Source: Myxococcota bacterium
GTDB lineage: Bacteria; Myxococcota_A; Polyangia; JAAYKL01
NCBI GenBank assembly: GCA_028278265.1
Contig: JANQET010000236.1
Coordinates: 801 to 64,800, forward strand
Direction: 5' to 3'
DNA length: 64,000 nt
Part shown: positions 13,052 to 50,948 of the stretch, piece by piece
Position numbering within the stretch: position 1 is the stretch's first letter
How the letters are laid out: each line of letters opens with the position of its first letter
Notes under the pieces: model-generated
What the model was told of the DNA's origin: nothing
The model's database searches: none
What the model saw: only the letters and a program-made list of their open reading frames with translations
Made by a program: the position numbers and the translations under genes

Positions 13052-13214
13052 TGTTGCTCCAATCTTCGAATGAAGTTACCCTCAGTCGCATAGATGTCGG
13101 CCGCCATACAATCCCAATTTTGCCACCCCTGGCAAGACCAACGACTGCTGTGAACCGTTTACCGATAACCGCGGTACCTACTTGATTATGATGTCATTGA
13201 CTTAGGAGTATGAC

Positions 13215-14840
13215 ATGAAAGTATTGCTGGTCGGTCCGGATTTCCAGGAAAACCTTTCCACCCGTTATTTGTCCGCCTCGCTCGTCGAGGCAGGACATGC
13301 AGTTGAGTTGACCCGGTTCAATGAACGCCGGGATGGACCGGCCGTACTCGATGCGGCGCGAAACGCGGATTTGATTGGACTCTCGATGTGCTTCCAAGCG
13401 CGCGCAGCGGAATTTATCGAACTGGCCGAACAGTTGAGAGCCCGGTACCCCGAGGTGATGATTGTGGGCGGTGGACATTACGCCTCTTGTGAGGCCACGA
13501 CCCTGCTCGAGCACCACTCGGCGATCGATTTGATCGTTATCCGCGAGGGCGAGAGAAGCTTGGTCGAAATTGCCGATTTGGCGACCCGGGGGCGGGATTT
13601 TTCCTCGATCCACGGAATCGCTCACCGGGACTCGGCCGGCCGACCCGTGCTCACGGCGGCGCGCCCTGCCGAAGACGACCTCGATGAACTGCCGTTTCCC
13701 GACCGCCGGGGCCAGGAGACTCGGCTCGCCGGGATCCCGACTGCCTACCTCATGGGCAGCCGTGGATGCTTGGGCGATTGCGGCTATTGTTCGATCACCA
13801 CGTTACACAAAATGTCCGGTGGCCAGCGCTTTCGCCAGCGGGACCCGGAGAACATCGCCCTGGAGATGGCCGAGCTGTACCATCAAAAGGGCATTCGCCA
13901 GTTCGTGTTCCACGACAATAACTTTCTGGTGCCCTCGGCATTTCGCAATCACCGACGACTGGACACCCTGGAACGGGCGATCGTGCGCGAGGGGCTCACC
14001 GACATCGCCCTGGTGTTGAAGCTGCGCCCGGGAGACGCGGATCGGGACGTGCTGGAACGCCTCAAACGGATGGGGCTGATTCGCGTATTTCTCGGTATCG
14101 GCTCCTCCACGGCGGCCGGATTGGGCTTTTTGAACCGCCGCCAATCAGTGGCCGAATGCAAGGATGCGCTGGATTTGTGTCAGGAGTTGGGCATTTCCGC
14201 TCACTACACATTGCTGGTGTTTCATCCGGAGACCACTGTCGAATCGTTGGACGCGGATATCGCCTTCATGAGGCAGTACAATCATTTCCCGCTCAATTTC
14301 TGTTGCGCGGAGATCTACTCCGGCACGCCCCTGTTGGCGGCCTTGCAAGCACAGGGACGGGCTCGGGGCAACTACCTGTCTTGGGAATACGAGATTTCCG
14401 ATCCGACCGTGAACCTGATCCGCAATGTGTCCAAGCGGCTGTTCTACCAGCGCTGTTGGTCGACCACCGGGCTGGTTCAATTGTCGATCGGTATGGATCA
14501 CCTCTCGACCCTACTGAGTCACTTCTACAGCGGTTCAGCGGTTGATCGCGTTTGTGATGAAATTGATTTGTTCGGTCATGAGGTCAACACCGACACCATC
14601 GAGCTGCTCGATTCGTTGACCACCCTGTGTGTGCGTTTCGATGATCCCACCGCACCGGCGTTTTTGGTTCGCTTGCGCCAATTGGCCGAGCAGGAAAGCG
14701 CCCTGCGCCGTCGCAGCATGGCCGTGCACGGGGCCCTGCGCCAGCGGATCGAGGCGATCGCGTCCCACCAAGAACCACGCGCTTCGTCTCAACGATGGAC
14801 ACCACGGCTCCACCAAACGGCTCGGGTGGTGGCGAGATAA
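13215..14840 (+). CDS. B12-binding domain / radical SAM protein (class B radical SAM)
   Basis: N-terminal cobalamin-binding Rossmann domain (KVLLVGPDF...MIVGGGHYAS). CxxxCxxC-type cluster (GSRGCLGDCGYCSIT). AGGAG RBS upstream. Confidence 0.85.
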   Translation: MKVLLVGPDFQENLSTRYLSASLVEAGHAVELTRFNERRDGPAVLDAARNADLIGLSMCFQARAAEFIELAEQLRARYPEVMIVGGGHYASCEATTLLEHHSAIDLIVIREGERSLVEIADLATRGRDFSSIHGIAHRDSAGRPVLTAARPAEDDLDELPFPDRRGQETRLAGIPTAYLMGSRGCLGDCGYCSITTLHKMSGGQRFRQRDPENIALEMAELYHQKGIRQFVFHDNNFLVPSAFRNHRRLDTLERAIVREGLTDIALVLKLRPGDADRDVLERLKRMGLIRVFLGIGSSTAAGLGFLNRRQSVAECKDALDLCQELGISAHYTLLVFHPETTVESLDADIAFMRQYNHFPLNFCCAEIYSGTPLLAALQAQGRARGNYLSWEYEISDPTVNLIRNVSKRLFYQRCWSTTGLVQLSIGMDHLSTLLSHFYSGSAVDRVCDEIDLFGHEVNTDTIELLDSLTTLCVRFDDPTAPAFLVRLRQLAEQESALRRRSMAVHGALRQRIEAIASHQEPRASSQRWTPRLHQTARVVAR

Positions 14841-33744: not shown

Positions 33745-35166
33745 ATGAGCTGCTGTCAAATCGGAGGGGACGAACAGACCTTCTTGTCGGCCACCAAGGG
33801 GATGTGCCGTGAGTGCCGGGAAATAGTGGACGCCCGCTACGTGGCCCGTGGGGAGCGGGTTTTTTTGGAGCGCCATTGTCCGAGTCACGGAAAACAGACC
33901 GCGTTGGTGGCCCGACGGCTTTCATCCTATTTGGAGATGATGCGCACCCCGCCCGGAGGGCAACCGCCCCGGCGCGTTCTGACCGAGCGGCAAGGGGGAT
34001 GCCCCACCTCCTGTGGCCCCTGCTCCTTTCACGGGCAAAACTGCCATCTCCCGGTCTTCTCGATCACCAACGCCTGTGATCTGCGCTGCCCTATTTGTTT
34101 TACCTACAACCGGACGGACCAGACCTTTTTCATGTCTGAAGAGGCGTTTGTCGAGCAGATCGATTTTGTGATCGACGCGGCAGGACCGGTCGACCTGGTC
34201 AACATCACCGGCGGGGAGCCCACCTTGCACCCGGAGTTGCCCCGGCTGTTGCGCCACGCCCGGCGACCGGAGATCGGCCGAATCACCGTCAACACCAACG
34301 GGTTGAACCTGGCCCGGAATCCCGGATTGGCCAGGGAGCTGGCCGATTTGGGCGTCTACTTGATCCTCTCTTTCGATACCTTTAATCCCCGGACGAGCCA
34401 AGCGATTCACGGCCGGGATATCGTCGAAGCCAAGCTCTCGGCGCTCGAAACAGCGGAGCGGTACGGTATTCCAACCACTTTGTTGATGGTGCTGATCAAG
34501 TCGGTCAACGAAGCGGATTTGGCGCCGGTGGTGGAGCTGGCCCTGTCCCGTGACATCGTTCGCTCCCTGACGATCCAGACGATGACCTACACCGGACAGG
34601 GGGGTGGCGAGTTCCTGCCGCGGGCCCATCTGCCGGTGGACGAGGTGGAGGAGCTGATCGAAGCTGCCACGTCGGGCCGAATCCCCCGCGCGGCATTCAT
34701 GCCGTTACCCTCGGCCCACCCACTGTGCTACGGGGTGGCCTACCTGATGTCCCACGGTGGGGCGACCCATTGCCTGACCGAACTGCTCGACAAATCGACC
34801 ATCGGCCAATATCTCCAAGAGGGTTACCTGCTGCGGCCTTCGGACGAGCTGGAGATCGAGCTCAAACAGGCGATCGACCGCCTGTGGAGCGAAGGGGGAG
34901 ACCCGGAGGTTCTCTCGACCCTCAAGTCGATGATGACGGACCTCTTTCCCGCCCAACCGATCACCGTCGCCGAACGCCAACGACGGGCGGAAAAACAGTT
35001 GAAGACGATCTACGTGCACGCCCATATGGACGAGGACACTTGGGAGCTGGGCCGCGCCGTGCGCTGTCCGGATCAGGTGCCGGTGGATGGCAAGCAGCTG
35101 ATCGGTGCCTGCAACTACAACCTGTTCTATCGCATGCGAGATGAGCGATTTTGGGTGACCCGATGA
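33745..35166 (+). CDS. radical SAM enzyme with N-terminal Cys-rich (zinc-ribbon/rubredoxin-like) domain, paralogue A
   Basis: N-terminus CC...CRECRE...HCPSHG and CPTSCGPCSFH; radical SAM NACDLRCPIC (CxxxCxxC); GGEPTLHP. Confidence 0.85.
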   Translation: MSCCQIGGDEQTFLSATKGMCRECREIVDARYVARGERVFLERHCPSHGKQTALVARRLSSYLEMMRTPPGGQPPRRVLTERQGGCPTSCGPCSFHGQNCHLPVFSITNACDLRCPICFTYNRTDQTFFMSEEAFVEQIDFVIDAAGPVDLVNITGGEPTLHPELPRLLRHARRPEIGRITVNTNGLNLARNPGLARELADLGVYLILSFDTFNPRTSQAIHGRDIVEAKLSALETAERYGIPTTLLMVLIKSVNEADLAPVVELALSRDIVRSLTIQTMTYTGQGGGEFLPRAHLPVDEVEELIEAATSGRIPRAAFMPLPSAHPLCYGVAYLMSHGGATHCLTELLDKSTIGQYLQEGYLLRPSDELEIELKQAIDRLWSEGGDPEVLSTLKSMMTDLFPAQPITVAERQRRAEKQLKTIYVHAHMDEDTWELGRAVRCPDQVPVDGKQLIGACNYNLFYRMRDERFWVTR

Positions 35167-36650
35167 ACCGTTTGAACAACGCCGCCGGTATGGTGGACGA
35201 GATCTGTCACAGCGCGACTCAGGGGTTGTGCAACACCTGCGGACAACTGACCGACGCCCGGATCGTTTTTCGTGGCGAGCAGGTGGTGCTGCAGAAGTGG
35301 TGTCTCGAGCACGGACAGACCGAGGCGCTGATCTGTTCGGACAAGGCGTGGTATTTGTCCTCTGGGGGATTCGTCAAGCCGGGCACCGAACCGCGGCAAC
35401 GGGCGGTGACCGAGTTCAACGGCTGCCCCGACTCCTGCGGGTTGTGTCCTGAACATCAACAGCACACCTGTGTGCCGATCGTGGAGATCACCGATCGCTG
35501 CAATCTGGCCTGCCCGATCTGTCTGGTCCGCGATCGCTGCGAGCAGGAGCTCACCGTGGCCCAGGCGAGCGCGATGTTCGATCGGTTGGTGCGGTACGAA
35601 GGTCAGATCAACATGGTGACCCTGAGCGGCGGAGAGCCGACCGTGCATCCCCACCTGCTCGACATTGTCGACGCGGCCCGGGAGCGGCGTGAGATCGGCG
35701 TCGTTTCGGTCTCCACCAACGGCGTGGCCCTGGCCCGCGACGACGACCTGCTGCAGGCCTTGGTGGATCGGGAGGTGGTGATCTCCCTGCAGTATGACGG
35801 GCACTCCGCTGACGTCTACCGAATCCTGCGCGGGGACCCGGCATTGGCCGAGCTCAAACAGAGGTTGATCGAGCGGGTGGTCGAGTTGGGCGGCCTGCTC
35901 TCACTGACAGTTACCCTGGCCCGCGGCATCAACGAGGACCAGTTGTCCGGCGTGCTAGAGCGGTTTTTTGGCCACGATCAGATCTTGAGCATCATGGTGC
36001 ACCCCCTGGCCTATCGCCCCCGTCAGACGCCGGAGATCGCTTGCGATCCTTCCGATATCATCACCATCCCCGATGTGGTGCGCTTGCTCAGCGAGCAATC
36101 CGGCGGCCGATTGGTCCGGTCCGATTTTGTGCCGCTGCCCTGCTCCCATCCCAGCTGTTTCGCCCTGACCTACGTGCTCAAGACCGATGACGGCAAGTTC
36201 GTCTCATTACCCCGGTTGATCGACCTCGAGACCTATCTCGACGTGATCAAGAACCAGGCGCTGCTCAGCACGGATGCTGAAAACCTGGGCAAGATCAAGG
36301 ACGCCATCTACGCGCTGTGGTCGGCGCAAAACGCGGTCCCTGATCAGGAGAGCGTGCTGCGGACCGTGCGGCAGATCCTGCTGCAGATGAACCGGCTGGG
36401 AAATGATACACCCTCGCCGCGGGATGCGCTGTCCCTGGGGCTGCGGCATGTCAAATCGATTTTCATCCACCAGTTCATGGATCGGGCCACCTTTGATCTG
36501 TCGCGGGCGATCAAGTGCTGCAACCACTACCCTGGGGCCGACGGCCGATTGCAGCCCGTTTGTGTGCGCAACACCATCACCGCGCCGCGGGCGACGTCGG
36601 GCGGAGCTGGGCGCGAAAGAACCACAACACCAGACCCACCCCGAGGGTGA
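35151..36650 (+). CDS. radical SAM enzyme with N-terminal Cys-rich domain, paralogue B
   Basis: CNTCGQ...WCLEHG, CPDSCGLCPEH, DRCNLACPIC, GGEPTVHP. Collinear similarity to paralogue A; overlaps it by 16 nt. Last ~25 aa are low-complexity. Confidence 0.82.
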   Translation: MGDPMNRLNNAAGMVDEICHSATQGLCNTCGQLTDARIVFRGEQVVLQKWCLEHGQTEALICSDKAWYLSSGGFVKPGTEPRQRAVTEFNGCPDSCGLCPEHQQHTCVPIVEITDRCNLACPICLVRDRCEQELTVAQASAMFDRLVRYEGQINMVTLSGGEPTVHPHLLDIVDAARERREIGVVSVSTNGVALARDDDLLQALVDREVVISLQYDGHSADVYRILRGDPALAELKQRLIERVVELGGLLSLTVTLARGINEDQLSGVLERFFGHDQILSIMVHPLAYRPRQTPEIACDPSDIITIPDVVRLLSEQSGGRLVRSDFVPLPCSHPSCFALTYVLKTDDGKFVSLPRLIDLETYLDVIKNQALLSTDAENLGKIKDAIYALWSAQNAVPDQESVLRTVRQILLQMNRLGNDTPSPRDALSLGLRHVKSIFIHQFMDRATFDLSRAIKCCNHYPGADGRLQPVCVRNTITAPRATSGGAGRERTTTPDPPRG

Positions 36651-37395
36651 TCAGCAGCTCGGTGAGCTCCTCCCAGAAGTCGAGCCAGACCGGCGTGCGG
36701 GCAAAGGCGGTGACCAGACAGAAGCGAAACCAGGAGAACAGCCAAAACCCCAGCCCGACGAAAAATGGCCCCTTGGCCCTGGCCGGTGCCGTGGCAGCTC
36801 CCCAGAGCAGCCCGGCCGTGGCGACGAAGCACCCCGCGGCGATGATCGGGAAGAGGCGAAAATTGAGCCAGATCAAGAACGGAGAGTAAGTGTAGCGCAC
36901 CTCGCTGCCGAAGACTGTGCCGAGGTGATCGTAGGGGGCGATGGTCGCGGTCAGCGGCAGCAGGGCGACCACGGCAAAAAACAGGGCGGCGAAGATCATC
37001 AATCGCTTGAGGCCGCAGGGGACATCGTGTTGCTTGTAGCATCGACCGCAGAACCGCTGAAGCACACACCTCTTTTGCGAATCGATAAAACCGATGACCT
37101 GGGTGTCGAATAGGGTCAACAATCCCCAGGGGACAAAGATACCCATCGCCACCATGCCCAAATCGTGCATCCCGTCGAGCCAATCGCTGGCCCCACCGGC
37201 AGAGAGAAAATTGAGCGCACAGGCCGCCTCACCGAGCCAAAACGCAGCCAAGCCGATGCAGAGGGTCGTTCGGCCCGAAAAGACGGGTTTGCGGGCAAGG
37301 GCGAGTATCCCGAGGACCAACACCATGTAGATCGGTTTGATGATGAGCCCGGAGGTGAAGGCCAGGTACTGCTCAAACGGCGTGAACAGTATCAT
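36577..37395 (-). CDS. polytopic membrane protein with conserved Cys cluster
   Basis: At least 7 hydrophobic helices. CVLQRFCGRCYKQHDVPCG loop. 3' end overlaps the paralogue-B 3' end by 74 nt (convergent). Confidence 0.5.
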   Translation of the reverse strand: MILFTPFEQYLAFTSGLIIKPIYMVLVLGILALARKPVFSGRTTLCIGLAAFWLGEAACALNFLSAGGASDWLDGMHDLGMVAMGIFVPWGLLTLFDTQVIGFIDSQKRCVLQRFCGRCYKQHDVPCGLKRLMIFAALFFAVVALLPLTATIAPYDHLGTVFGSEVRYTYSPFLIWLNFRLFPIIAAGCFVATAGLLWGAATAPARAKGPFFVGLGFWLFSWFRFCLVTAFARTPVWLDFWEELTELLITLGVGLVLWFFRAQLRPTSPAAR

Positions 37396-37727
37396 CGCCG
37401 GTCAATTCTGGTCTGAGATGACGCTGCCATATTGCATGACGATCGTGCGATCTGCCTGATTTGTCAATTGGCTGTCGTGGGTGGCGATATTGGTGACCTG
37501 AACCCCCACGCCGATGATCACCGCCACCATCACCAGACCAAAAGAAAATCGATTCTTCTTGAGCGACTGAAGCGCCGGAAATGCAAAGATGCTGAGGTCG
37601 GACTGGGTTCCTTCGGGCAACGGGTTCTCCTTTTGCTGCTCGGAGCAGGCTGCAAAAACTCGTTCCGACAATTGGCGCGATTTGTGCGGTTTGAGAATGG
37701 GTTGATCGGTGGTATCGAGGGAGCAGT

Positions 37728-38756
37728 ATGTGGCGATCGGTGCGCAACTATTGGTATTTGCGGCTGGCTGGGGTCACCCCGACGCGATGGCGCCCCTTGC
37801 TCGCGGTCTACTACTTGACCTATGCCTGCGATTTCAGATGCCCCTATTGCGCGGACGGCGCGAACCGTCCGTACTATCGGCTCGATTCGCCGACTCTCGA
37901 CGCGGACGGGGTCGTCGAGCTGCTCACCACCGTGCGGCGATACTGTGACCACTTGGTGCTCACTGGCGGTGAGCCGCTGAACCACCCGCAAGTGGACGAA
38001 ATTCTCCGCGCACTTTCGCCACTTGGATTTCGCAGTGTGGTGTTGACGACCAACGGGTATGACTTGGCGCCCCGGCTGGCCGGCGTGCTGGAGGCGGTGG
38101 ATCACCTGGTGATCAGCCTGGACACCTTGGATCGGGCCAAGGCAGACGGCTGGTACGGGGTGGGAGACGGGGCCCTGGACCGCATTCTGGCCACCGCCCT
38201 AGAGGCCGAAGCCAGGCGCTCGGCCAGCAGCACTGAGATCATCGTCTCGGCTGTGGTGACCCCCCACAACATTGCCGATTTGTACGAGGTCTATCAGTTC
38301 TGTCAAACCAATGGGCTTCGCTTTGCCGCCTCTCCCCAATTGGAGGGGGTCAAGGTACATCCCGATTTGATCGACAACGGGCCTTACCGGACGCTGTTCG
38401 ACTTTTTGCTCGAGGAGAAGAAAAAGGGTCGGGCGATCAACGGGACGCCCCTCTACCTGCAGTACATGCGCGATCTGAAGGCGTTTCGCTGTTTCCCTTC
38501 CGCCACCCTTGCCGTGTCACCCGTCGGAGAGGTCTTTTACCCCTGTCTGGAGCGGGGCACCAAGGGGGGCAACTTGCTTCAGGAGCCGGACCTGGATCGG
38601 ATTCGGCAACAGGCGATCGAGCGATTCGGCCCCGAGCCCAGCTGTGACAACCGCTGCCACTCCGCCTGTGCTCTGAGTTTCGGGCTCATTCTGGGACGGC
38701 CGTGGAGCATGGCCCCCGAGGCGCTGATTCAGCTCAAATCAAGATGGCATCGTTGA
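37728..38756 (+). CDS. radical SAM enzyme (SPASM/twitch-like C-terminal Cys motifs)
   Basis: YACDFRCPYC, LTGGEPL, C-terminal CDNRCHSAC. Confidence 0.8.
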   Translation: MWRSVRNYWYLRLAGVTPTRWRPLLAVYYLTYACDFRCPYCADGANRPYYRLDSPTLDADGVVELLTTVRRYCDHLVLTGGEPLNHPQVDEILRALSPLGFRSVVLTTNGYDLAPRLAGVLEAVDHLVISLDTLDRAKADGWYGVGDGALDRILATALEAEARRSASSTEIIVSAVVTPHNIADLYEVYQFCQTNGLRFAASPQLEGVKVHPDLIDNGPYRTLFDFLLEEKKKGRAINGTPLYLQYMRDLKAFRCFPSATLAVSPVGEVFYPCLERGTKGGNLLQEPDLDRIRQQAIERFGPEPSCDNRCHSACALSFGLILGRPWSMAPEALIQLKSRWHR

Positions 38757-39773
38757 AGGGGGTGGGGTCAGGGGCAACGGCCGGGTCATCTGGTAGTAGT
38801 CCCGCAGGTTGGCCCACCGCTGATTCCCGTACATCAGCGTCTCGATCGCCCCGCGACAGCTGGTCCAGCAACTCGAGCATTCGTTTGCCAGGTGCTTTTC
38901 ACGAAGCCGAGCGGTGAGGGTGTCAATCGGCTCGGTGAGAATGTTGCCCACAGGTTGATCGAGGCAGTCGATACACAGGCTCACGTCCCCCCGGCAGTCG
39001 ATGTTGCAGAGGTTTTTCCCGGCATAGCAGGGGGAGATGCCGTCCTGTTCGCCGGCCCTGGTGAAGCGCCCGATGTAGCCCCGCAGGGTGACGAAATCCG
39101 GGTACCTTTTTTTGAGGTCGAGTAACCGTTTGCTGATCGCTGATGGGGCGACCCGGCGGGATTTCTGGCCCCTCATGGTGGAGTGGAGGGTCACCAGGTA
39201 GGTCACATTGAGTGATCCGGCGAGGCGGATCAACGGTTCGATGTCGTCCAGGTTGTCGTCCATCACCACGGTGATCAGGTTGACCCGCTGCTCCGGAACG
39301 AGGCGGTTTTGCCCCAAGACGCGCAAGGCGTCGACCGCGCGGTCATAGGCACCGGTGATGCCCCGTTGGGCGTCGTGCCGGGTCGCGTCGGCATAGTCGA
39401 TCGAGACGCTGATCTCCCACATCCCCGCGGCGAACAGGGCGCGGGCCATCTCCCGGGTCATGTACCAGCCGTTGGAGATCATCACCGGAAAATGGTGCCG
39501 GCTCAGTGTTCTGACGATATCCACCACCTCGGGGTGCATCAACGGCTCACCACCTCCCACGTGGATGATTTGCGGGGCGATGCGATTGAGCTTTTCGGAG
39601 ATGACGCGGACGTCACCGGCGGTCAAGTGGGCGCCGGCGGTGCGATCCTGCCACAGATCGCAGATTTGGCAGCGGCAGTTGCAGCGCTCGAGGATCTGCA
39701 TGTTGGTGTGGATTATTTTCCTTTTGGACAAAAACGCCCTGACAAAGCGAAGCATTTTGCGGTTGTCTTTCAT
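38739..39773 (-). CDS. radical SAM enzyme (SPASM-like C-terminus)
   Basis: ERCNCRCQIC, VGGGEPLMHP, C-terminal CNIDCRGDVSLCIDC...CSSCWTSC. Confidence 0.8.
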   Translation of the reverse strand: MKDNRKMLRFVRAFLSKRKIIHTNMQILERCNCRCQICDLWQDRTAGAHLTAGDVRVISEKLNRIAPQIIHVGGGEPLMHPEVVDIVRTLSRHHFPVMISNGWYMTREMARALFAAGMWEISVSIDYADATRHDAQRGITGAYDRAVDALRVLGQNRLVPEQRVNLITVVMDDNLDDIEPLIRLAGSLNVTYLVTLHSTMRGQKSRRVAPSAISKRLLDLKKRYPDFVTLRGYIGRFTRAGEQDGISPCYAGKNLCNIDCRGDVSLCIDCLDQPVGNILTEPIDTLTARLREKHLANECSSCWTSCRGAIETLMYGNQRWANLRDYYQMTRPLPLTPPPSTMPS

Positions 39774-39776
39774 CGC

Positions 39777-40769: not shown

Positions 40770-41173
40770 GGGGATTCTCCAAGCTTCCGCGCGATGGACT
40801 TGGCCACCTCCTCGGCAGTCAGCAGAAAGGCGAGCTGCTTGATCGTCGTGCCCTCCACCAGGGACGCCTCTGCTCGGGGAAAGCGCTCCCGCAGCATGGC
40901 CAGCGCCCGCGGGGTCAGCACCTCGTCCCGGTGCAGCTCAGCCTCGGCCAAGCCGAGTTGCGCCGACAGGCTCATGTCCTGTTTGTCCAGCTTGATCTCG
41001 AACTCCTGTTCGAGCAGAAACATCAGCTCCACCAGATCGAGGGACTCGGCGCCCAGGTCGTTCATCAGGGTCGATTCCGCGGTGATGGCGGACGGCTCGA
41101 GGGCCAGTACTTCGGCGATGCAGTTGTTGACGCGCGCTTGAATGTCGTTTTTTCCGGTGGCTTCGGTCATCAA
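40766..41173 (-). CDS. acyl carrier protein (extended C-terminus)
   Basis: LGAESLDLVEL phosphopantetheine-attachment (DSL) motif. Start ATG overlaps the ketoreductase stop (ATGA). Confidence 0.8.
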   Translation of the reverse strand: MMTEATGKNDIQARVNNCIAEVLALEPSAITAESTLMNDLGAESLDLVELMFLLEQEFEIKLDKQDMSLSAQLGLAEAELHRDEVLTPRALAMLRERFPRAEASLVEGTTIKQLAFLLTAEEVAKSIARKLGESP

Positions 41174-41910
41174 TATCCTCCGTCCACCGGCACTACGGCG
41201 CCGGTGATATAAGCTGCATCATCCGAGAGCAAGAATGAGACCACCTTGGCGATCTCGTCCACTGTGCCGAATCTGCGCAGAGCGATACTATCGGTGATCG
41301 CATCCCCGGCGAGCGTCCTGACCGCCCGGGACATTTTGGTCTCAATCACACCGGGGGCCACAGCGTTGACGCGGATCTGCTTGGGACCCAATTCGACGGC
41401 GAGGGCACGGGTGAACGACTCGACAAATCCCTTGGTACCGGCGTAGACGGCATTGCCCCGATTGGGCCGGGTCGCTGCCACCGAAGAGATGTTGATCACA
41501 CTGCCCCGTTTTTGGCGCATCATCGGACGCAGCACCGCCCGGGTCAGGCGGACCATTCCCGCGATGTTGGTCGCGAGCATCGCCTCCAGATCCTCGTCCT
41601 CGAGGAGCGCCAGCAGTTCCTCGCGAACAACTGCGGCATTGTTGACCAGACCGTGGATCGTATCAAACGCTTCGACGGAACGATCGACGATCTGTTGGGC
41701 GCAGTCCGGTTCACAGATATCCCCGCGGACGAGAATCACCCGGGACCCCCGGTCACGGCACCGGGCCTCGACGCGATTGGCCGCCTTTTTATCCCGGTGG
41801 TAACAGAGCACCAGATTGGTCCCGGCACCTGCCAGTGACTTGGCCAGGGCCGCTCCGATGCCCCGGGAGGCACCGGTAATGATTAGCGTTCTTGTGTTAT
41901 TTTTTTTCAT
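41170..41910 (-). CDS. SDR ketoreductase (3-oxoacyl-ACP reductase-like)
   Basis: TGASRGIGAA, NAAV, YAGTK. Start at M48 of the track ORF (ATG 41910). Confidence 0.85.
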   Translation of the reverse strand: MKKNNTRTLIITGASRGIGAALAKSLAGAGTNLVLCYHRDKKAANRVEARCRDRGSRVILVRGDICEPDCAQQIVDRSVEAFDTIHGLVNNAAVVREELLALLEDEDLEAMLATNIAGMVRLTRAVLRPMMRQKRGSVINISSVAATRPNRGNAVYAGTKGFVESFTRALAVELGPKQIRVNAVAPGVIETKMSRAVRTLAGDAITDSIALRRFGTVDEIAKVVSFLLSDDAAYITGAVVPVDGGY

Positions 41911-41944
41911 TTCGTTGTCTCGAACCTCGTTGAACAGGACCGTG

Positions 41945-43225
41945 TTACGGTGACCATTGCCCGGCAACGATGCAGGCATTTTGGCCGCCGAACCCGAATG
42001 AATTTGACATGAAGTGCTCCACAGTCGCCTGGCGCGGCGTGCCGGGCACATAGTCCAGATCGCACTGGGGATCCGGGGTGACCAAATTGATCGTCGCCGG
42101 GAGAAGCTGCTCGTTCAGGGCAAACAGGCCGGCGATGAACTCCACCGCACCGGCGGCGCCGATCAAGTGACCGATTTGACTCTTGGTGGAGCTGACCGGA
42201 ATCTGCCTTGCCCGGGAACCGAACACCTTCTTGATCGCTCGGGTCTCGGCCGGATCGTTTTTACGGGTTCCCGTGCCGTGGGCATTGATGTAGTCCACCT
42301 GGGCCGGGGAAAGCCCTGCCGAGGCCAGTGCCCCCCTCATCGCGCGAATTGCGCCGGCCTGATCCGGGGCGGGATCGGTCACCCGGTAGGCGTCCATCGA
42401 CGAGCTGTAGCCCAACACCTCTCCGTGAATGGTGGCCCCCCGGGCCAGCGCCGACTGGGCGTTCTCCAGGATACAGAATCCCGCGCCTTCGCCGAGCACG
42501 AAACCGTCCCGGTGTTTGTCGAACGGGCGGGACGCACCGGGTCCCAAATCGTTGGCCGTGGAGAGGGCTTCCAGCATGCAGAACCCGCCCACGCCGAGGG
42601 GATTGAGCATCGAGTCGTAGCCCCCGGTGACGGCCACGTCCAGCACCCCTTGGCGGATCGCGAGGAAGGCCTCGCCGAGGGCTTGGGTGCCGGCGGCGCA
42701 TGCGGAGACGTTGACCTGAACCATCCCACCGGCACCGGTCAGCCGGGCGATCGCCCTCGCCCCGAGGTCCGCGGGGATCTGGAGGTTCGTGAACACGGGG
42801 GTGTCAAAGAGGTGGTCGCGCAGCGCCCGGCCGTCGATCGCGCCGTCGGAGAACAGGGGCACCAAATCGTCGAGGTGAAAAATTTCCAACCCCGCGGCGG
42901 CAACAACCCCTACCCGCTCCTCGGGGTAGCATCGGCTGATCGGAACATCGCCGAAAGCGGCAGCCAGCGCTTGACGAGCGGCTGTGACGCCGAAGGCCGA
43001 CTTGGGATCCGCGCTCAGGGCAGATCGCTCCCGGTCCGACAATCCGGTGGTATCCAGGTCAAACCCGTTGACCTCTGCGCCGATTCGGGTCGGAAAACGC
43101 CCCGCATCGAACGAGGCGATGCGATCCACACCGGCCCGTGCGGATCGCAAGCCGTCGAAAAACGGCCCGATTCCGATGCCGATCGGAGCGACCACCCCCA
43201 TCCCGGTGACCACGACCCTAGGCAC
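41945..43225 (-). CDS. beta-ketoacyl-ACP synthase (KAS I/II-like, catalytic Cys-His-His present)
   Basis: VSACAAG (Cys), NAHGTGT (His), QIGHLIGAAG (His). Confidence 0.9.
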   Translation of the reverse strand: MPRVVVTGMGVVAPIGIGIGPFFDGLRSARAGVDRIASFDAGRFPTRIGAEVNGFDLDTTGLSDRERSALSADPKSAFGVTAARQALAAAFGDVPISRCYPEERVGVVAAAGLEIFHLDDLVPLFSDGAIDGRALRDHLFDTPVFTNLQIPADLGARAIARLTGAGGMVQVNVSACAAGTQALGEAFLAIRQGVLDVAVTGGYDSMLNPLGVGGFCMLEALSTANDLGPGASRPFDKHRDGFVLGEGAGFCILENAQSALARGATIHGEVLGYSSSMDAYRVTDPAPDQAGAIRAMRGALASAGLSPAQVDYINAHGTGTRKNDPAETRAIKKVFGSRARQIPVSSTKSQIGHLIGAAGAVEFIAGLFALNEQLLPATINLVTPDPQCDLDYVPGTPRQATVEHFMSNSFGFGGQNACIVAGQWSP

Positions 43226-44417
43226 CTGAGCCCTCCTCGGGGGCGAGCGCCAAGGCGAACTGAGCCCCGTCCGCGTCCCCGGCAGAAATCAGGTAGCACC
43301 GATCCGTTGAATCGATCGGCGCGTTGCCTGGGGGGTCGCCCGTCAGCACCAATGCCACGGCAAAGAACACCCCGGCCGGACCGAGCTCCCCCAGGGCGCC
43401 GTCGAACGACACCAGCCTGGCACGCTCCGTTTGGGGGAAGGCGTCCCGCTGGTCTGCTTCCGCGATATCGGCCGTGCGATCCGGGTTGCCGCAGGAAACG
43501 ATTCGGCTGGGTTGCCGGTTGCCCAGCGCCCTTGCCCAGTGCCGGCGGCGAACCGCGTACAGCTCGTCCGGTGTGGTCCCCTCGCTTCGTCCATGGGAGA
43601 CGCCGAGTACACGGGCGCGGATTGGCGTGCCCCTCCGAGCAGCCGTTCCGCGGGTTGTCATGACGAATAATCCGGCACCGTCGGCCGGGGCGATGCCGCG
43701 GTGCTGCGGCTCGAAAGGAACCGCCTGTTCGACCGTTTCGGCGAGCCGTCCCAGGCGCAGTTGGGTGCACAGTGTCATCAAGCTGAACCCCTGGGAAGCG
43801 GCTCCGACCAGCACCTCGGTGAAGCGGCCCTCGACCAATCCCCGGGCGGCAGTCTCCAAGCAGGCGCCGGCCTGATCCACACTGGGATAGGTGACGAAGT
43901 TGGGCCCTTTGAGATTGAAACAGATCGAAATCAAGCCCACCGGCATATTGAGCAGCGATTTGAACGGCATCAGCGGATGGCAGGCACCCAACCCCTCTGT
44001 TCCCATCCGCTGCAGATCGAGGGTGCCGTCCGGGGCCTTGGACCGCTCCACCGCGCGGCTCACCGAGGAGAGATCGAACACGGTCATTCCCACCGCGGCA
44101 AACAGCCCCATCGGTTGAAGCACATCGTCGCTGTCGATCACTCCCGCGTCGCTCAACGCTCGGCCGGCGGCGATCACCGAAAGTGACGTGGTCTGGCTCA
44201 TGTACTTGGCCAATTTCCGATCGGGCAAAAACGGCGCTGGCGAGGCGGGCTCTGCCGTCGCACCCGGACAAGGGGGAAAGGCGTCGACCCCCGCGGGAAT
44301 AGCCATGGACAAGGCGCTGCGTCCCTGCTTGATCGCCGACACGGTGGCGGACAGGTCGCCGAACGGACCGTGCAGGCCCACGCCGGTGATGACCACATCC
44401 CCGTCGGATCCGGGCAT
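43218..44417 (-). CDS. ketosynthase-like protein lacking the catalytic Cys (chain-length-factor-like partner)
   Basis: Thiolase-fold KS-like sequence, but the active-site position reads SVDQAGA with no Cys/His triad. Start at M134 of the track ORF (ATG 44417), which overlaps the dehydratase stop. Confidence 0.72.
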   Translation of the reverse strand: MPGSDGDVVITGVGLHGPFGDLSATVSAIKQGRSALSMAIPAGVDAFPPCPGATAEPASPAPFLPDRKLAKYMSQTTSLSVIAAGRALSDAGVIDSDDVLQPMGLFAAVGMTVFDLSSVSRAVERSKAPDGTLDLQRMGTEGLGACHPLMPFKSLLNMPVGLISICFNLKGPNFVTYPSVDQAGACLETAARGLVEGRFTEVLVGAASQGFSLMTLCTQLRLGRLAETVEQAVPFEPQHRGIAPADGAGLFVMTTRGTAARRGTPIRARVLGVSHGRSEGTTPDELYAVRRRHWARALGNRQPSRIVSCGNPDRTADIAEADQRDAFPQTERARLVSFDGALGELGPAGVFFAVALVLTGDPPGNAPIDSTDRCYLISAGDADGAQFALALAPEEGSGA

Positions 44418-44881
44418 CACTCGACGACCTTCATTTCTCGGGTGATCAGGTCGAGGTACTGTTTGCCGAACGTGTCCAGCTCCGGGTCGTCCACGTGGAG
44501 CATGACGTAAATGATATCCGCTTGGCACACCTTGTCCCCGTCCCGGGAACCGATCACTTTGACGAATCCGGAATCCTCGTGGTGCGACTGGATCTCGGCC
44601 CTCACCGACAGCTTGTCTCCCGGTTTGACGAAGTCGCGAAATTTGGCCTTGACTGAGCTGAGCACGCAGCGGGGCACATCCTCTTGGCGATCGCGGAGGG
44701 AGAGCTCGATCAGCGCTCCTCCTAGCTGGGCCATCGTCTCGATCAACAGGGCCCCCGGGTAGATCGGCTGACCCGGATAGTGGTACTCGAAACAGTCGTC
44801 CGCCAGGGTGATGCACTTCGAGGCCACCGCGTAGTCGAATTTTTTGATTTCCTCTATTCGGTCAATCAGTAGGTATCGCAT
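44417..44881 (-). CDS. FabZ/FabA-like beta-hydroxyacyl-ACP dehydratase (hot-dog fold)
   Basis: YHYPGQPIYPGALLIETMAQLGG is a classic FabZ motif. Confidence 0.82.
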   Translation of the reverse strand: MRYLLIDRIEEIKKFDYAVASKCITLADDCFEYHYPGQPIYPGALLIETMAQLGGALIELSLRDRQEDVPRCVLSSVKAKFRDFVKPGDKLSVRAEIQSHHEDSGFVKVIGSRDGDKVCQADIIYVMLHVDDPELDTFGKQYLDLITREMKVVE

Positions 44882-45719: not shown

Positions 45720-46679
45720 ATGAGTGGACAATCGACAAAGAAGCGATCGAGCGGACGCCTCTGGATGGCCTTTGATTTGAAACAATTGGCTGTTTTTATC
45801 GAAGTCGTTCGCTGTGCCAGTTTCTCCGGTGCAGCGCGGTCGTTGAATCTGGCGCAAGCCTCGGTGAGTGAGCGAATTTTGACCTTGGAGGAATCGGTGG
45901 GCACCCGCTTGCTCGACCGGTTGGGCCGCAAGGTGATCCCCACCAGCGCCGGGGAACTGTTGCTGCGACGAGGACGCGAATTGCTGGAGCTGCAGAACGA
46001 GACCGAGCGAGAGCTGCGGGAGCTGCTCGGCCTGAGCAAGGGGGAGGTGTCGTTGGGGGCGAGCACCACACCCGGCGAGTACATCCTGCCCGGGGTGATC
46101 CAGCGATTCAAACGCCGACATCCGGCAATCGGTGTGCGCATGCTGATCGGCGACTCCCTCTCGATTACCCGCCGCGTCGAAGATGGGACGCAGGAGTTCG
46201 GCGTGGTGGGATTCCGCGAGGAGAGTGAACAACTGAAGTTTCAAGCGTTGGCCGACGATGACATCGTACTGGTGGTCGCCGGCAACCATCCCCTGACAGC
46301 CCGACGGGGGCCGGTCTCCCCGGAGCAACTCGAAGATCAGCCGATCGTGCTGCGGGAATCCGGGTCGGGTACGCGGGCCAATGCGATGCGCCCGTTGACC
46401 GCGATCTTCAAGAAATCCGGAGTCGGCTGGAAAAACGTGACCGAGTTGGGCAGCTCCACCGCGGTCAAGGAGGGGGTCAAAGCGGGGCTGGGATTTGCAC
46501 TTCTATCGCGGCGGGCGATTCGCGCCGAGCTGGCGTCGTCGTCGTTGAAAATTGTCGAAATGAAGGGATTGCCGATCAAGCGCAAATTTTACCTCGTGAC
46601 CGACAAGCGGCGAACCCTCTCCCCGGCGGCGCGGGCTTTCAGCCGGTTTCTGCTCGACAACAGAAAACATCTCGACTGA
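45720..46679 (+). CDS. LysR-family transcriptional regulator (divergent from the biosynthetic operon)
   Basis: LKQLAVFIEVVRCASFSGAARSLNLAQASVSERILTLE HTH plus LysR substrate-binding domain. Start could instead be 45765. Confidence 0.8.
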   Translation: MSGQSTKKRSSGRLWMAFDLKQLAVFIEVVRCASFSGAARSLNLAQASVSERILTLEESVGTRLLDRLGRKVIPTSAGELLLRRGRELLELQNETERELRELLGLSKGEVSLGASTTPGEYILPGVIQRFKRRHPAIGVRMLIGDSLSITRRVEDGTQEFGVVGFREESEQLKFQALADDDIVLVVAGNHPLTARRGPVSPEQLEDQPIVLRESGSGTRANAMRPLTAIFKKSGVGWKNVTELGSSTAVKEGVKAGLGFALLSRRAIRAELASSSLKIVEMKGLPIKRKFYLVTDKRRTLSPAARAFSRFLLDNRKHLD

Positions 46680-46779
46680 TTGGATTTGACTTCTGAATAC
46701 CCCCTTTTTATTGAAGGTTAGGGACCGGGTATCGGCGGATGCGGGGACAAACGTCTCCAGTCGAAAGTGAGGACACCAA

Positions 46780-47838
46780 ATGAGCAAAACCGAACACCAT
46801 CTCACCGCGGTGGTAAAGGGCGCGGGTTGAGCATCCAAGCTCGGGCCAGGGGACCTGGCCAAGGCGCTGTGCGGACTCGAAATTGATCGCCATCCGGATC
46901 TGTTGGTCGGGTTGGCCCGGCCGGACGACGCCGGGGTCTACCGCTTGACCGACGAGTTGGCCCTGGTGCAGACCGTGGATTTTTTCACGCCGATTGTGGA
47001 CGATCCCTACACATTCGGCCAAGTCGCCGTGGCCAACGCCCTGTCCGATGTCTACGCGATGGGGGGGTGCCCGTTGACCGCAATGAATATCGTCGGTTTT
47101 CCCAAAGACAAGTTGGATCTGTCGGTGTTGGGGGATATCCTGCGGGGAGGACAGGACAAGCTGCGGGAGGCCGAGGTGGCGTTAGTCGGGGGGCACAGCA
47201 TCGCCGATCCGGAGTTGAAATTCGGTGTCTCGGTGACCGGCGTGGTCCATCCCGACCAATTGTGGACCAACCTGGGTGCCCGGGCGGGGGATCGGGTGGT
47301 GCTGACCAAGCCGTTGGGCACCGGCATTGTGAACACGGCGCTGAAGGCCAAGCAGGCCAGCGCCGAAGCGGTGACCGCCTCCATCGATACCATGCGAGCC
47401 CTCAATCGGGATGCCGCCGAAATAGCCCGGGAGTTCGACCCCCACGCCTGCACCGACGTGACCGGGTTCGGCCTGGTGGGGCACGCCGTCGAGATGCTCG
47501 ATGCCTCCGGCCTGTGCCTGCGCATCGATACCGAGGCGCTGCCCCGCTTGCCTGAGGTGGACCGGTACAGCAACCAGGGGTTGATGCCCGGGGGACTGCA
47601 TCGCAATCGGGATTTCTACAAGGAGAGGATTCGAGTTGAGCAGGGAGTGGCTCAAGAGATGCTCGATTTGGTGTTCGATCCACAGACCTCAGGGGGATTG
47701 CTCATCGCCGTGGCCCCCCAAGACGCCGAAACGATGGTCGCTCGAATGAACACCCGCGGGGTGAGCGCGGCGATCATCGGTGAAATTATCGACACCCCGG
47801 ATCCCATCTTGATCGAACTTGCTAGAAAGGGGACCTGA
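46780..47838 (+). CDS. selD: selenide, water dikinase (selenophosphate synthetase) with in-frame UGA selenocysteine codon
   Basis: ATG at 46780 with AGTGAGGA RBS, in frame with the ORF at 46903. MSKTEHHLTAVVKGAG-[TGA 46828-46830]-ASKLGPGDLAKAL aligns to the SelD GAG-C/U-G-K active-site loop. The rest is full-length SelD/AIR-synthase-related. Confidence 0.85.
46844..46860 (+). ncRNA. candidate bacterial SECIS hairpin for selD UGA recoding
   Basis: Perfect stem GGCCAGG/CCTGGCC with GGA loop, beginning 14 nt 3' of the UGA. Confidence 0.45.
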
Positions 47839-47891: not shown

Positions 47892-48890
47892 ATGACGTCG
47901 TACGGAAAGGTCGAAGTCCCCCTCGATCGGCGCGAATGGCGCCCCACACCCTTGATTGAGCAGGTGGTGCTCGTGACGACGATCAATCGCGATCAGGAAC
48001 CCCACGTGGCCACCAAGTCCCGCGTTTCGATCGTGACCTACGGCCCTCCGGCGGTGGTTTTTTTCGCCTGTCGGGCCGAGTTCGTCACCGCCAAGAACAT
48101 CCTGAAGACCGAGCAGTTTATCATCAACGTACCCAGCGACGATCTCGTCGCCACATCATGGGTGCTCGGCTCGGACCCCTCCGGGTTTGGTGCTGATCGC
48201 TTCGAGGACAACGGGCTGACCCCCATCCCGGCGGTCAAGCTCGACGCACCGCGCATCGCCGAGTGCCAAGCCCACTTGGAGTGCGAGTTGGTCGAGACCC
48301 GGCCGTTCGAAGAGGATTTTGCCGTCTTCGGCAGGGTGGTTTCGGTGACGATGAATGAGCGCGTCCTCGCCGGCAGCGCCACGCCGCGGTACCGCACCTT
48401 GGCCCCGTTCTTTTTCCTGGAGGCGGGATGGACCGCCTCGATGGGCTCGGCCCGGTTGGTCGAAAAACCTATTCCCGGTCCGCGGCACGATCGCACGGTG
48501 CTCCCGGTGAGCGAGATGGCCAGGTCGGTCGAGTTTTACCGGCAGGTCTTCGGTTGGCCGGTCAGTGTCGAGGATCCGAACTATGTCGAGTTCGAGTTGC
48601 CCAAAAATCGCCGCCTGGCCCTCTGCCGGCGCGAGACCATCGCCAAAACCACCGGCGTGCCGCTCAAGGCAGACTCAGCCGATGCATTGAGCGGCCTGGA
48701 GCTCCACTTTTACGGAGAAGACGCCCCGCACATTGTCGCCCGGCTCGTCGGGGCTCAGGCCCAACAGCTGACCCATCCGAGCAAGTTCGGCCGGTTCGAC
48801 GACGCCTCCTATTTTGTCGACCCCGACGGCCACCTGCTCGTTATCTCCCTTCGACCGACGGGCACCCCGGACCAGAAAACCGACATTTGA
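47892..48890 (+). CDS. flavin reductase-like (FMN-binding split barrel) domain fused to glyoxalase/VOC domain
   Basis: N-terminal half resembles flavin reductase domain proteins. C-terminal half (PVSEMARSVEFYRQVFGW...) resembles VOC/glyoxalase. Confidence 0.6.
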   Translation: MTSYGKVEVPLDRREWRPTPLIEQVVLVTTINRDQEPHVATKSRVSIVTYGPPAVVFFACRAEFVTAKNILKTEQFIINVPSDDLVATSWVLGSDPSGFGADRFEDNGLTPIPAVKLDAPRIAECQAHLECELVETRPFEEDFAVFGRVVSVTMNERVLAGSATPRYRTLAPFFFLEAGWTASMGSARLVEKPIPGPRHDRTVLPVSEMARSVEFYRQVFGWPVSVEDPNYVEFELPKNRRLALCRRETIAKTTGVPLKADSADALSGLELHFYGEDAPHIVARLVGAQAQQLTHPSKFGRFDDASYFVDPDGHLLVISLRPTGTPDQKTDI

Positions 48891-50283: not shown

Positions 50284-50793
50284 CTAGAGTTCGATAATGA
50301 TGTCCGTGTCCGCGTCCGTGTCATCGTCGTTGTTGTCGTCATCATCATCATCGTCATCATCATCGTCGCAATCATCATTGTCGTCGTTGTTGTCGTCATC
50401 GTCATCATCGTCATCATCATCGTCGCAATCATCATTGTCGTCGTTGTTGTCGTCATCATCATCATCATCGTCATCATCATCGTCGCAATCATCGTTGTCG
50501 TCGTTGTTATCATCATTATCATCGTCATCGTCATCGTCATCGTCGTCATCGTCATCATCGCCGTCGTCGCAGTCGTCGTCTTCGGTGTCGTCATCGGGCT
50601 CGTCGTCCGTATCGTTGTCCCCGTCGTCGTCTTCGGTGTCCCCTTCGTCGCAGTTGTTGCCCCCTTGATCGTCATCAGTGATCAGGCAGCCGTTTTCGTC
50701 CAGGTAGAAGTCCGGCTCGAGACCACAGGAGGTGAGCATGAAAAATGCGAAGATAAAAACCACTGCGAAACACAACCATTCCAACGTTTTCAT
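50284..50793 (-). CDS. lipoprotein consisting almost entirely of poly-Asp/Asn with periodic Cys
   Basis: Start at M22 of the track ORF (MKTLEWLCFAVVFIFAFFMLTSCG lipobox). Mature protein about 80% D/N, three tandem D10-NN-DD-N-DD-C-D units. Confidence 0.6.
   Translation of the reverse strand: MKTLEWLCFAVVFIFAFFMLTSCGLEPDFYLDENGCLITDDDQGGNNCDEGDTEDDDGDNDTDDEPDDDTEDDDCDDGDDDDDDDDDDDDDDNDDNNDDNDDCDDDDDDDDDDDDNNDDNDDCDDDDDDDDDDDNNDDNDDCDDDDDDDDDDDNNDDDTDADTDIIIEL
50330..50560 (-). repeat. tandem repeat (~60-63 nt unit, 3 copies) within GAT/GAC-rich tract
   Basis: Unit ...gtcgcaatcatcattgtcgtcgttgttgtcgtcatc... recurs at ~50362, ~50422 and ~50485. Confidence 0.8.
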
Positions 50794-50948
50794 TTGTTCT
50801 CTCCTTGCTCGTCGGTTCTGATTTCCGGGCAGCTGCAAGATGAATACCATCGCCATTTAACTGGATTTTCAGGCCGAATTTGGTGGGTCAGCCGCTGTTA
50901 CGGTGTGCGGTCCAGTGTGCTGACAGTGTGCCGCACAGCCAGGTGTCC

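Follow-up and report, generated by a model that had tools for sequence, protein, structure and literature searches.

The window analysed here, that is, the whole 64-kb stretch of DNA, carries on its plus strand a predicted full-length selD gene, which codes for selenide, water dikinase and extends from 46780 to 47838 (352 codons, the end coordinate including the TGA stop). Codon 17 of this gene is an in-frame TGA (46828-46830, plus strand), read here as selenocysteine (Sec, U17) and homologous to the catalytic Cys17 of E. coli SelD. The start codon is the ATG at 46780-46782 and a Shine-Dalgarno-like GAGGA, read from the sequence, is located 6 nt upstream on the same strand (46769-46773), which bears out the good ribosome-binding site that the first-pass annotation had ascribed to this ATG. 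Following the TGA, the frame meets no further stop until the TGA at 47836-47838, and the earlier claim that translation would run from the short 5′ segment through the UGA into the body of SelD therefore agrees with the frame. Three further plus-strand features frame or follow the site: a SECIS-like upper stem-loop at 46844-46860, a gene for a LysR-family regulator of the selenium-metabolism type (LysR_Se/HrsM-like) at 45765-46679, directly 5′ of selD, and a 332-aa fusion of a flavin-reductase-like and a glyoxalase/VOC domain (Pfam PF01613 and PF00903) at 47892-48890, which lies 53 nt 3′ of selD. Existing gene calls do not describe this arrangement in full. The ORF list opens the selD frame at TTG 46903, as had been pointed out before, and the public annotation (P0001; 46912-47838, plus strand) is a protein of 308 aa that starts at a TTG with MARPDD... 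and lacks the Gly-rich catalytic loop.

The reality of the interrupting codon is supported by the independent Logan assembly (SRR20820740), which matches the window with 99.97% identity over 2.9 kb and is identical across 46780-46900, so that the TGA is not an assembly error. Apart from codon 17 the selD ORF is intact, with a strong coding bias (GC3 0.79). An alternative genetic code, with UGA specifying Trp or Gly, was considered and rejected: TGA is the ordinary stop of many genes in the window, including selD itself and the LysR gene, and a reassigned code is thereby excluded. Besides selD, a screen of the whole window for coding frames interrupted by TGA yielded nothing other than antisense frames, neighbouring genes that share a frame and low-complexity artefacts.

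The product obtained by reading through the TGA (352 aa) is recognized as SelD over practically its whole length. Specifically, it scores 394.7 bits against TIGR00476 (cutoff 125), with residues 8-315 covering profile positions 2-310 of 311, and 350.4 bits against NF002098 (cutoff 299), where the alignment starts from residue 2. The TIGR00476 alignment thus begins at residue 8, that is, 5′ of the TGA codon, and the family profile includes the region that the gene calls leave out, in line with the proposal that the read-through product is SelD. For the deposited protein P0001, precomputed matches to PF00586 and PF02769 (AIRS plus AIRS_C, PurM-like) are available. A structural reference is provided by E. 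coli SelD (PDB 3U0O), with which the read-through product is collinear over residues 1-338 (E = 2.2e-73). In this alignment the TGA codon falls on Cys17 and K20 on Lys20, and the GAG-U-ASK of the window stands opposite the GAG-C-GCK of E. coli at positions 14-20, in the Gly-rich loop; the Aquifex SelD structures 2YYE and 2ZOD likewise have their equivalent site opposite U17. The assertion that Sec replaces the active-site Cys of a GAG-C/U-GxK loop is in this way upheld by the alignment. Moreover, the Asp-rich ATP/metal motifs are kept (DDAxVY, xDFF, NAxSD and TDVTGFG). With scores far above the family cutoffs, the gene is by sequence criteria a full-length selD, and the predicted 352-aa enzyme would make selenophosphate from selenide and ATP. 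In contrast, a product starting at 46903 or 46912 would be deprived of the whole Gly-rich loop, including Cys/Sec17 and Lys20.

Conservation of the UGA among orthologues was assessed on two collections. The former consists of 32 related loci from species-representative genomes, in 27 of which the site could be located by its motif; these 27 span Deltaproteobacteria, Thermodesulfobacteriota, Acidobacteriota, Planctomycetota, Nitrospinota and Clostridia MAGs. The homologous codon is TGA in 26 of them and TGC in the remaining one (L001). For the latter, a degenerate DNA pattern for G-[U/C]-A-[S/A]-K-x-G-P-G-D-L, accepting TGA, TGC or TGT, was scanned over metagenome contigs, and the matches were pooled with the earlier loci; among the resulting 117 distinct context-matched sequences, TGA occurs in 112 and TGC in 5. 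The two closest relatives, L033 and L034 (62-63% protein identity), keep the TGA. Cys occupies codon 17 in E. coli SelD and in L001, L037, L084, L104, L136, L141 and L156-L159. The alignment with orthologues thus sustains the first-pass annotation, and the same holds for the start of the protein: orthologues beginning at a conserved position downstream of the TGA, which would speak for a shorter enzyme, were looked for, and it is instead the TGA and the coding sequence upstream of it that turn out to be conserved. In particular, the peptide 5′ of the TGA (LT..V.GAG) is conserved and agrees with full-length Cys homologues such as P0115 (TVKGAGCAAKLPPGDL), and coding sequence is conserved across phyla on both sides of the TGA, including the 24 start-less codons that follow it. 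No alternative start is conserved, and the truncations found in databases begin at varied points. Among the best 120 SelD proteins matched, most measure 303-334 aa and miss the N-terminus, and a few, which include the Cys forms inspected, measure 348-355 aa. This split indicates that gene callers truncate the protein systematically in metagenome annotations.

The stem-loop downstream of the UGA had been described as a perfect 7-bp hairpin, GGCCAGG-GGA-CCTGGCC, beginning 14 nt after the UGA, and it is found as such at 46844-46860: seven Watson-Crick pairs (GGCCAGG/CCUGGCC) close a GGA triloop, and the first base of the hairpin is the 14th nucleotide after the TGA, which corresponds to a 13-nt spacer. 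On its own the hairpin has a predicted energy of -12.1 kcal/mol. Folding of the region, the check that had been proposed for it, gave a mixed outcome, since the hairpin is present in both the minimum free energy (MFE) and the centroid fold, while the folding energy of the whole region is not significantly lower than that of shuffled sequences (z = -1.45; 16 of 200 shuffles fold equally well). The z-score of the region was replaced by position-specific and codon-aware statistics. Perfect Watson-Crick stems of at least 7 bp starting 8-25 nt downstream are a feature of about 1% of window positions and follow 8 of the 1068 TGA triplets of the plus strand. Because the stem lies within the codons of the conserved peptide G-P-G-D-L-A, a probability was also computed over the synonymous choices available for this peptide under the codon usage of the window itself. 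Given the peptide, seven contiguous pairs are expected with p of about 0.055, and the all-Watson-Crick stem as observed, in which Pro is encoded by the rare CCA (6% of Pro codons), with p of about 0.002. A search of Rfam at gathering and at permissive thresholds returned no SECIS match, the sole hit with E < 10 being an unrelated chance match. This result carries little weight and is to be expected, as bacterial SECIS elements have no common sequence model (PMC12013277). A possible extended and interrupted lower stem (46831-46872, plus strand) appears in the MFE structure of the window sequence; L033 and L034 lack its outer pairs, and the element was dropped as a prediction confined to the window sequence and not conserved in relatives.

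Comparative evidence on the upper stem-loop comes from the closest relatives and from an alignment of Sec-type genes. L033 and L034 keep the hairpin at the same offset from the TGA. The stem of L033 is identical to that of the window, and that of L034 carries a CCA to CCG change, which converts an A-U pair into a compatible G.U pair, together with an extra closing G-C pair. Covariation was evaluated on an ungapped, codon-anchored alignment of 112 Sec sequences (A1). Columns 18 and 32, namely the wobble base of a Gly codon and the middle base of the codon that follows Leu, covary, with U-A in 37 sequences, G-C in 12, U-G in 10 and C-G in 3; none of 500 shuffles reaches the observed double-sided changes or the covariation score, and a contingency (Fisher) test gives p = 2.7e-4. 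Covariation is restricted to this one pair of the eight; only about 40-55% of all Sec-selD sequences form the outer pairs, and several registers are in use. The inner pairs are uninformative either way, being fixed by the conserved peptide GPGDL. As judged from the alignment, the conserved peptide dictates the greater part of the stem, and a single pair shows genuine covariation. The earlier statement that a hairpin sits where a bacterial SECIS would be expected receives partial comparative support from the conservation in L033 and L034 and from this covarying pair.

The choice of register differs among lineages. Most Sec-selD genes across phyla carry GGUCCGGGNGACC (Gly wobble T and Pro wobble G; A1 columns 16-28, equal to 46843-46855 of the window), a string that can fold in two registers, one of which is shifted from that of the window. 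The subgroup to which the window belongs (GGG CCR GGG GAC CUG GCC) is committed to one of the two, and more distant lineages have hairpins at other offsets. The hairpin potential of Sec forms relative to Cys forms goes in the expected direction, in a comparison that includes only 9 Cys sequences and is underpowered. Individual Cys forms behave differently: L158, whose peptide is the same as in several Sec forms, uses GGC and has a broken outer stem, and L157, which carries the GGUCCGGGAGACC string, retains a 6-bp hairpin in the shifted register.

The genes surrounding selD provide a further line of evidence. The product of the LysR gene has its best NCBIfam match in NF040786 (LysR_Se/HrsM); the score of 244.3 bits falls slightly short of the curated cutoff (250) and exceeds that of the next family (YeiE) by about 50 bits. 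The LysR-selD arrangement recurs in 16 related loci, and LysR relatives at 48-49% identity bear a LysR_Se-type name at NCBI. The LysR_Se/HrsM subfamily has been reported almost only in Sec-decoding organisms, close to Sec-pathway genes (PMC5322559), and the adjacent regulator of the window probably controls selenium-related genes. In the closest relatives the place of this LysR gene is occupied by YedF-like genes: TusA/DsrE-like (YedF-like) genes are found beside selD in L033 (5274-5891) and L034 (5351-5920), and also in L159 (1371-1656). YedF is a published candidate selenium-metabolism protein (PMC5322559).

On the 3′ side, the flavin-reductase-like/VOC fusion has a counterpart directly 3′ of selD in L034 (7073-8071, 53% identity), the relative whose SelD is 62% identical, and was not found in the other selD loci, about 150 in number. 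It is tempting to imagine an undescribed selenium-handling partner that, for example, would reduce or detoxify selenium species and hand selenide over to SelD, within a LysR_Se-selD-reductase module; this idea is nonetheless a long shot, and the linkage is explicable by shared ancestry alone, since it is seen in two related loci only. Among related loci, the nitroreductase and adenylate cyclase neighbours have no conserved linkage to selD.

As regards the selenocysteine machinery, ARAGORN detected no tRNA in the 64-kb window, and Rfam found no tRNA-Sec there at either gathering or permissive thresholds. Likewise, no SelA, SelB, SelU, YqeB or YqeC domain was found among the large coding-like ORFs of the window that were scanned. 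As selA, selB and tRNA-Sec do not appear in the 64 kb, the machinery is inferred rather than shown, and, from the established knowledge of bacterial Sec decoding, a reasonable inference is that selA, selB and selC would reside elsewhere in the genome. Indirectly, this is supported by the adjacent selenium-type LysR gene and by the selC genes beside selD in 26 related loci. Of the 38 tRNAs that were detected in the related selD loci, 26 are tRNA-Sec (anticodon tca) near selD, often within about 1-1.3 kb of its Sec/Cys codon and in a few cases several kb away; examples are L042 (4436-4534), L048 (7796-7892) and L085 (2233-2329). In other words, the Sec trait is visibly linked to this selD family in other loci. 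Clustering of selC with selD is common in other lineages and absent in this window. In L156, a Logan contig, selA (PF03841; 1246-1480) lies directly 3′ of a Cys-type selD, and the Cys-type SelD of close relatives therefore also serves the Sec pathway.

The features of the locus can be compared with those of well-characterized systems. The native SelD proteins of Haemophilus influenzae and Aquifex aeolicus carry Sec. The window gene resembles these Sec-type bacterial genes (H. influenzae and A. aeolicus; 2ZOD/2YYE) in belonging to the same family, in having the UGA at the same position of the catalytic loop and in having a stem-loop directly 3′ of the UGA within the coding sequence. The local peptide G-U-A-[AS]-K-x-G-P-G-D-L is also common to them, and the Aquifex crystal sequence reads SSGCAAKVGPGDL. 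Overall identity of the window SelD amounts to about 45-55% with sequences from named genomes and to 62-65% with metagenomic ones. Its hairpin register (GGCCAGG/CCUGGCC, GGA) is common to a subset of Sec-selD genes; most others have GGUCCGGGNGACC, where a different register is possible. The E. coli protein (3U0O) is collinear with it and alike in the Gly-rich loop, in Lys20 and in the Asp-rich motifs, but has Cys where the window has UGA, and needs no SECIS because of this Cys at position 17. The paradigm of bacterial SECIS elements is that of E. coli fdhF, a minimal upper stem-loop of 17 nt that follows the UGA at a distance of 11 nt, has a bulged U and contains G/U in its apical loop. Like this element, the hairpin of the window spans 17 nt within the coding sequence and exposes G residues in a small apical loop; unlike it, it shows no sequence similarity to fdhF and no bulged U, has a triloop in place of a tetra- or penta-loop, and starts after a spacer of 13 rather than 11 nt.

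Taken together, the open frame, the identification of the product as SelD, the homology of the UGA with Cys17, the conservation of the UGA and of the coding sequence that flanks it, and a hairpin that is partially conserved and covaries at one pair point to a selD product that is itself a selenoprotein, with Sec inserted at UGA codon 17 of the catalytic loop by bacterial Sec decoding. We assign to this reading a probability of about 0.93. The mechanism would be the following. Translation would begin at ATG 46780 and, as the ribosome reaches the UGA at 46828, SelB-GTP carrying Sec-tRNA(Sec) would bind the stem-loop at 46844-46860, so that, as in established bacterial Sec decoding, Sec would be inserted in place of termination. 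Sec17 would then take the place that the catalytic Cys has in other SelD proteins, within the N-terminal Gly-rich loop (G-A-G-U-A-S-K). SelD makes the selenium donor for Sec synthesis and the expression of a Sec-type SelD is for this reason tied to, and dependent on, the selenium supply.

Three other explanations deserve to be weighed against this one. The TGA might be a genuine stop, the functional protein being the shortened product that starts at TTG 46903 or 46912 and the upstream ORF of 16 codons being meaningless. Such a view matches ORF finding as well as the public annotation, and fits with a 64-kb window in which the Sec machinery is not visible. It would, however, leave the enzyme without the loop bearing Cys/Sec17 and Lys20, a loop that can be matched to E. 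coli SelD residue by residue, and it sits badly with a family profile that extends 5′ of the TGA. Nor does it explain the conservation, in several phyla, of the peptide 5′ of the TGA, of the TGA itself and of the 24 start-less codons that come next, or why database proteins lack a conserved alternative start and measure 303-334 aa as opposed to the 348-355 aa of full-length Cys forms; we regard it as highly improbable. Slightly less probable still is a pseudogene, produced by a recent nonsense mutation of a Cys codon (TGC or TGT) to TGA, or else a sequencing error. The change from TGC to TGA requires a single base, and Cys forms do occur in related lineages (L001, L084 and L158), but a recent lesion or an error would hardly be shared by 112 distinct related sequences and by the closest relatives at 62-63% identity, nor be reproduced identically by an independent assembly. 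Furthermore, the remainder of the ORF is intact and strongly biased in its coding (GC3 0.79), and the hairpin that follows the TGA is conserved.

Just as improbable as the pseudogene is the explanation in which the UGA is recoded as a standard amino acid (e.g., Trp, Cys or Gly), with the hairpin acting as a general stimulator of read-through. A bacterial selD is not known to undergo non-Sec read-through of this type. The precedent is the UGA of insect SPS1, whose non-Sec read-through is aided by local stem-loops (PMC4561486). Against its application here, TGA is the normal stop of many window genes, which leaves no room for a reassigned code, and the site coincides with the catalytic Cys/Sec position; in addition, tRNA-Sec lies beside selD in related loci and a selenium-type LysR gene is adjacent. 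Insertion of Sec at codon 17 accordingly is the reading retained.

The significance of the finding is mainly one of annotation. Sec has been reported in 19% of prokaryotic SelD genes, always at the same position and with a bacterial SECIS downstream (PMC4561486), and SelD is among the most widespread bacterial selenoproteins (PMC9312934). A Sec-containing SelD followed by a bacterial SECIS has thus long been described and is common, so that the finding is correct and already known in kind (PMC4561486, PMC9312934), and adds nothing conceptually new to selenium biology. Its value lies in correcting an entry of 308 aa without catalytic loop to a 352-aa selenoprotein with U at position 17. The selD gene also marks the organism as a probable user of selenocysteine, and other UGA-interrupted genes on other contigs, for example for formate dehydrogenase, are therefore likely to be mis-called too. 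Moreover, the large share of N-terminally shortened SelD among the closest database proteins indicates that the annotation error is systematic in metagenome-derived proteins.

A few other features of the window are worth recording. The segments 33745-39776 and 41170-44881 contain a group of four radical-SAM genes, of which two have HMPTM-type zinc ribbons, beside two ketoacyl-synthase-like genes, an SDR gene and a FabA/ApeI-like dehydratase gene; the whole has the look of a biosynthetic cluster for a lipid or polyene-type product that is so far uncharacterised. Further upstream (13206-14840) there is also a radical-SAM gene of the B12-binding type. On the minus strand, an ORF at 50284-50856, for which no Pfam match was found, encodes a signal peptide resembling those of lipoproteins (…FFMLTSCG…), after which comes a tail that is extremely rich in Asp and Asn. 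This tail corresponds to a 60-nt tandem repeat at 50324-50545 (3.8 copies, 90% matches), a region in which overlapping frames on both strands give rise to spurious low-complexity ORFs.
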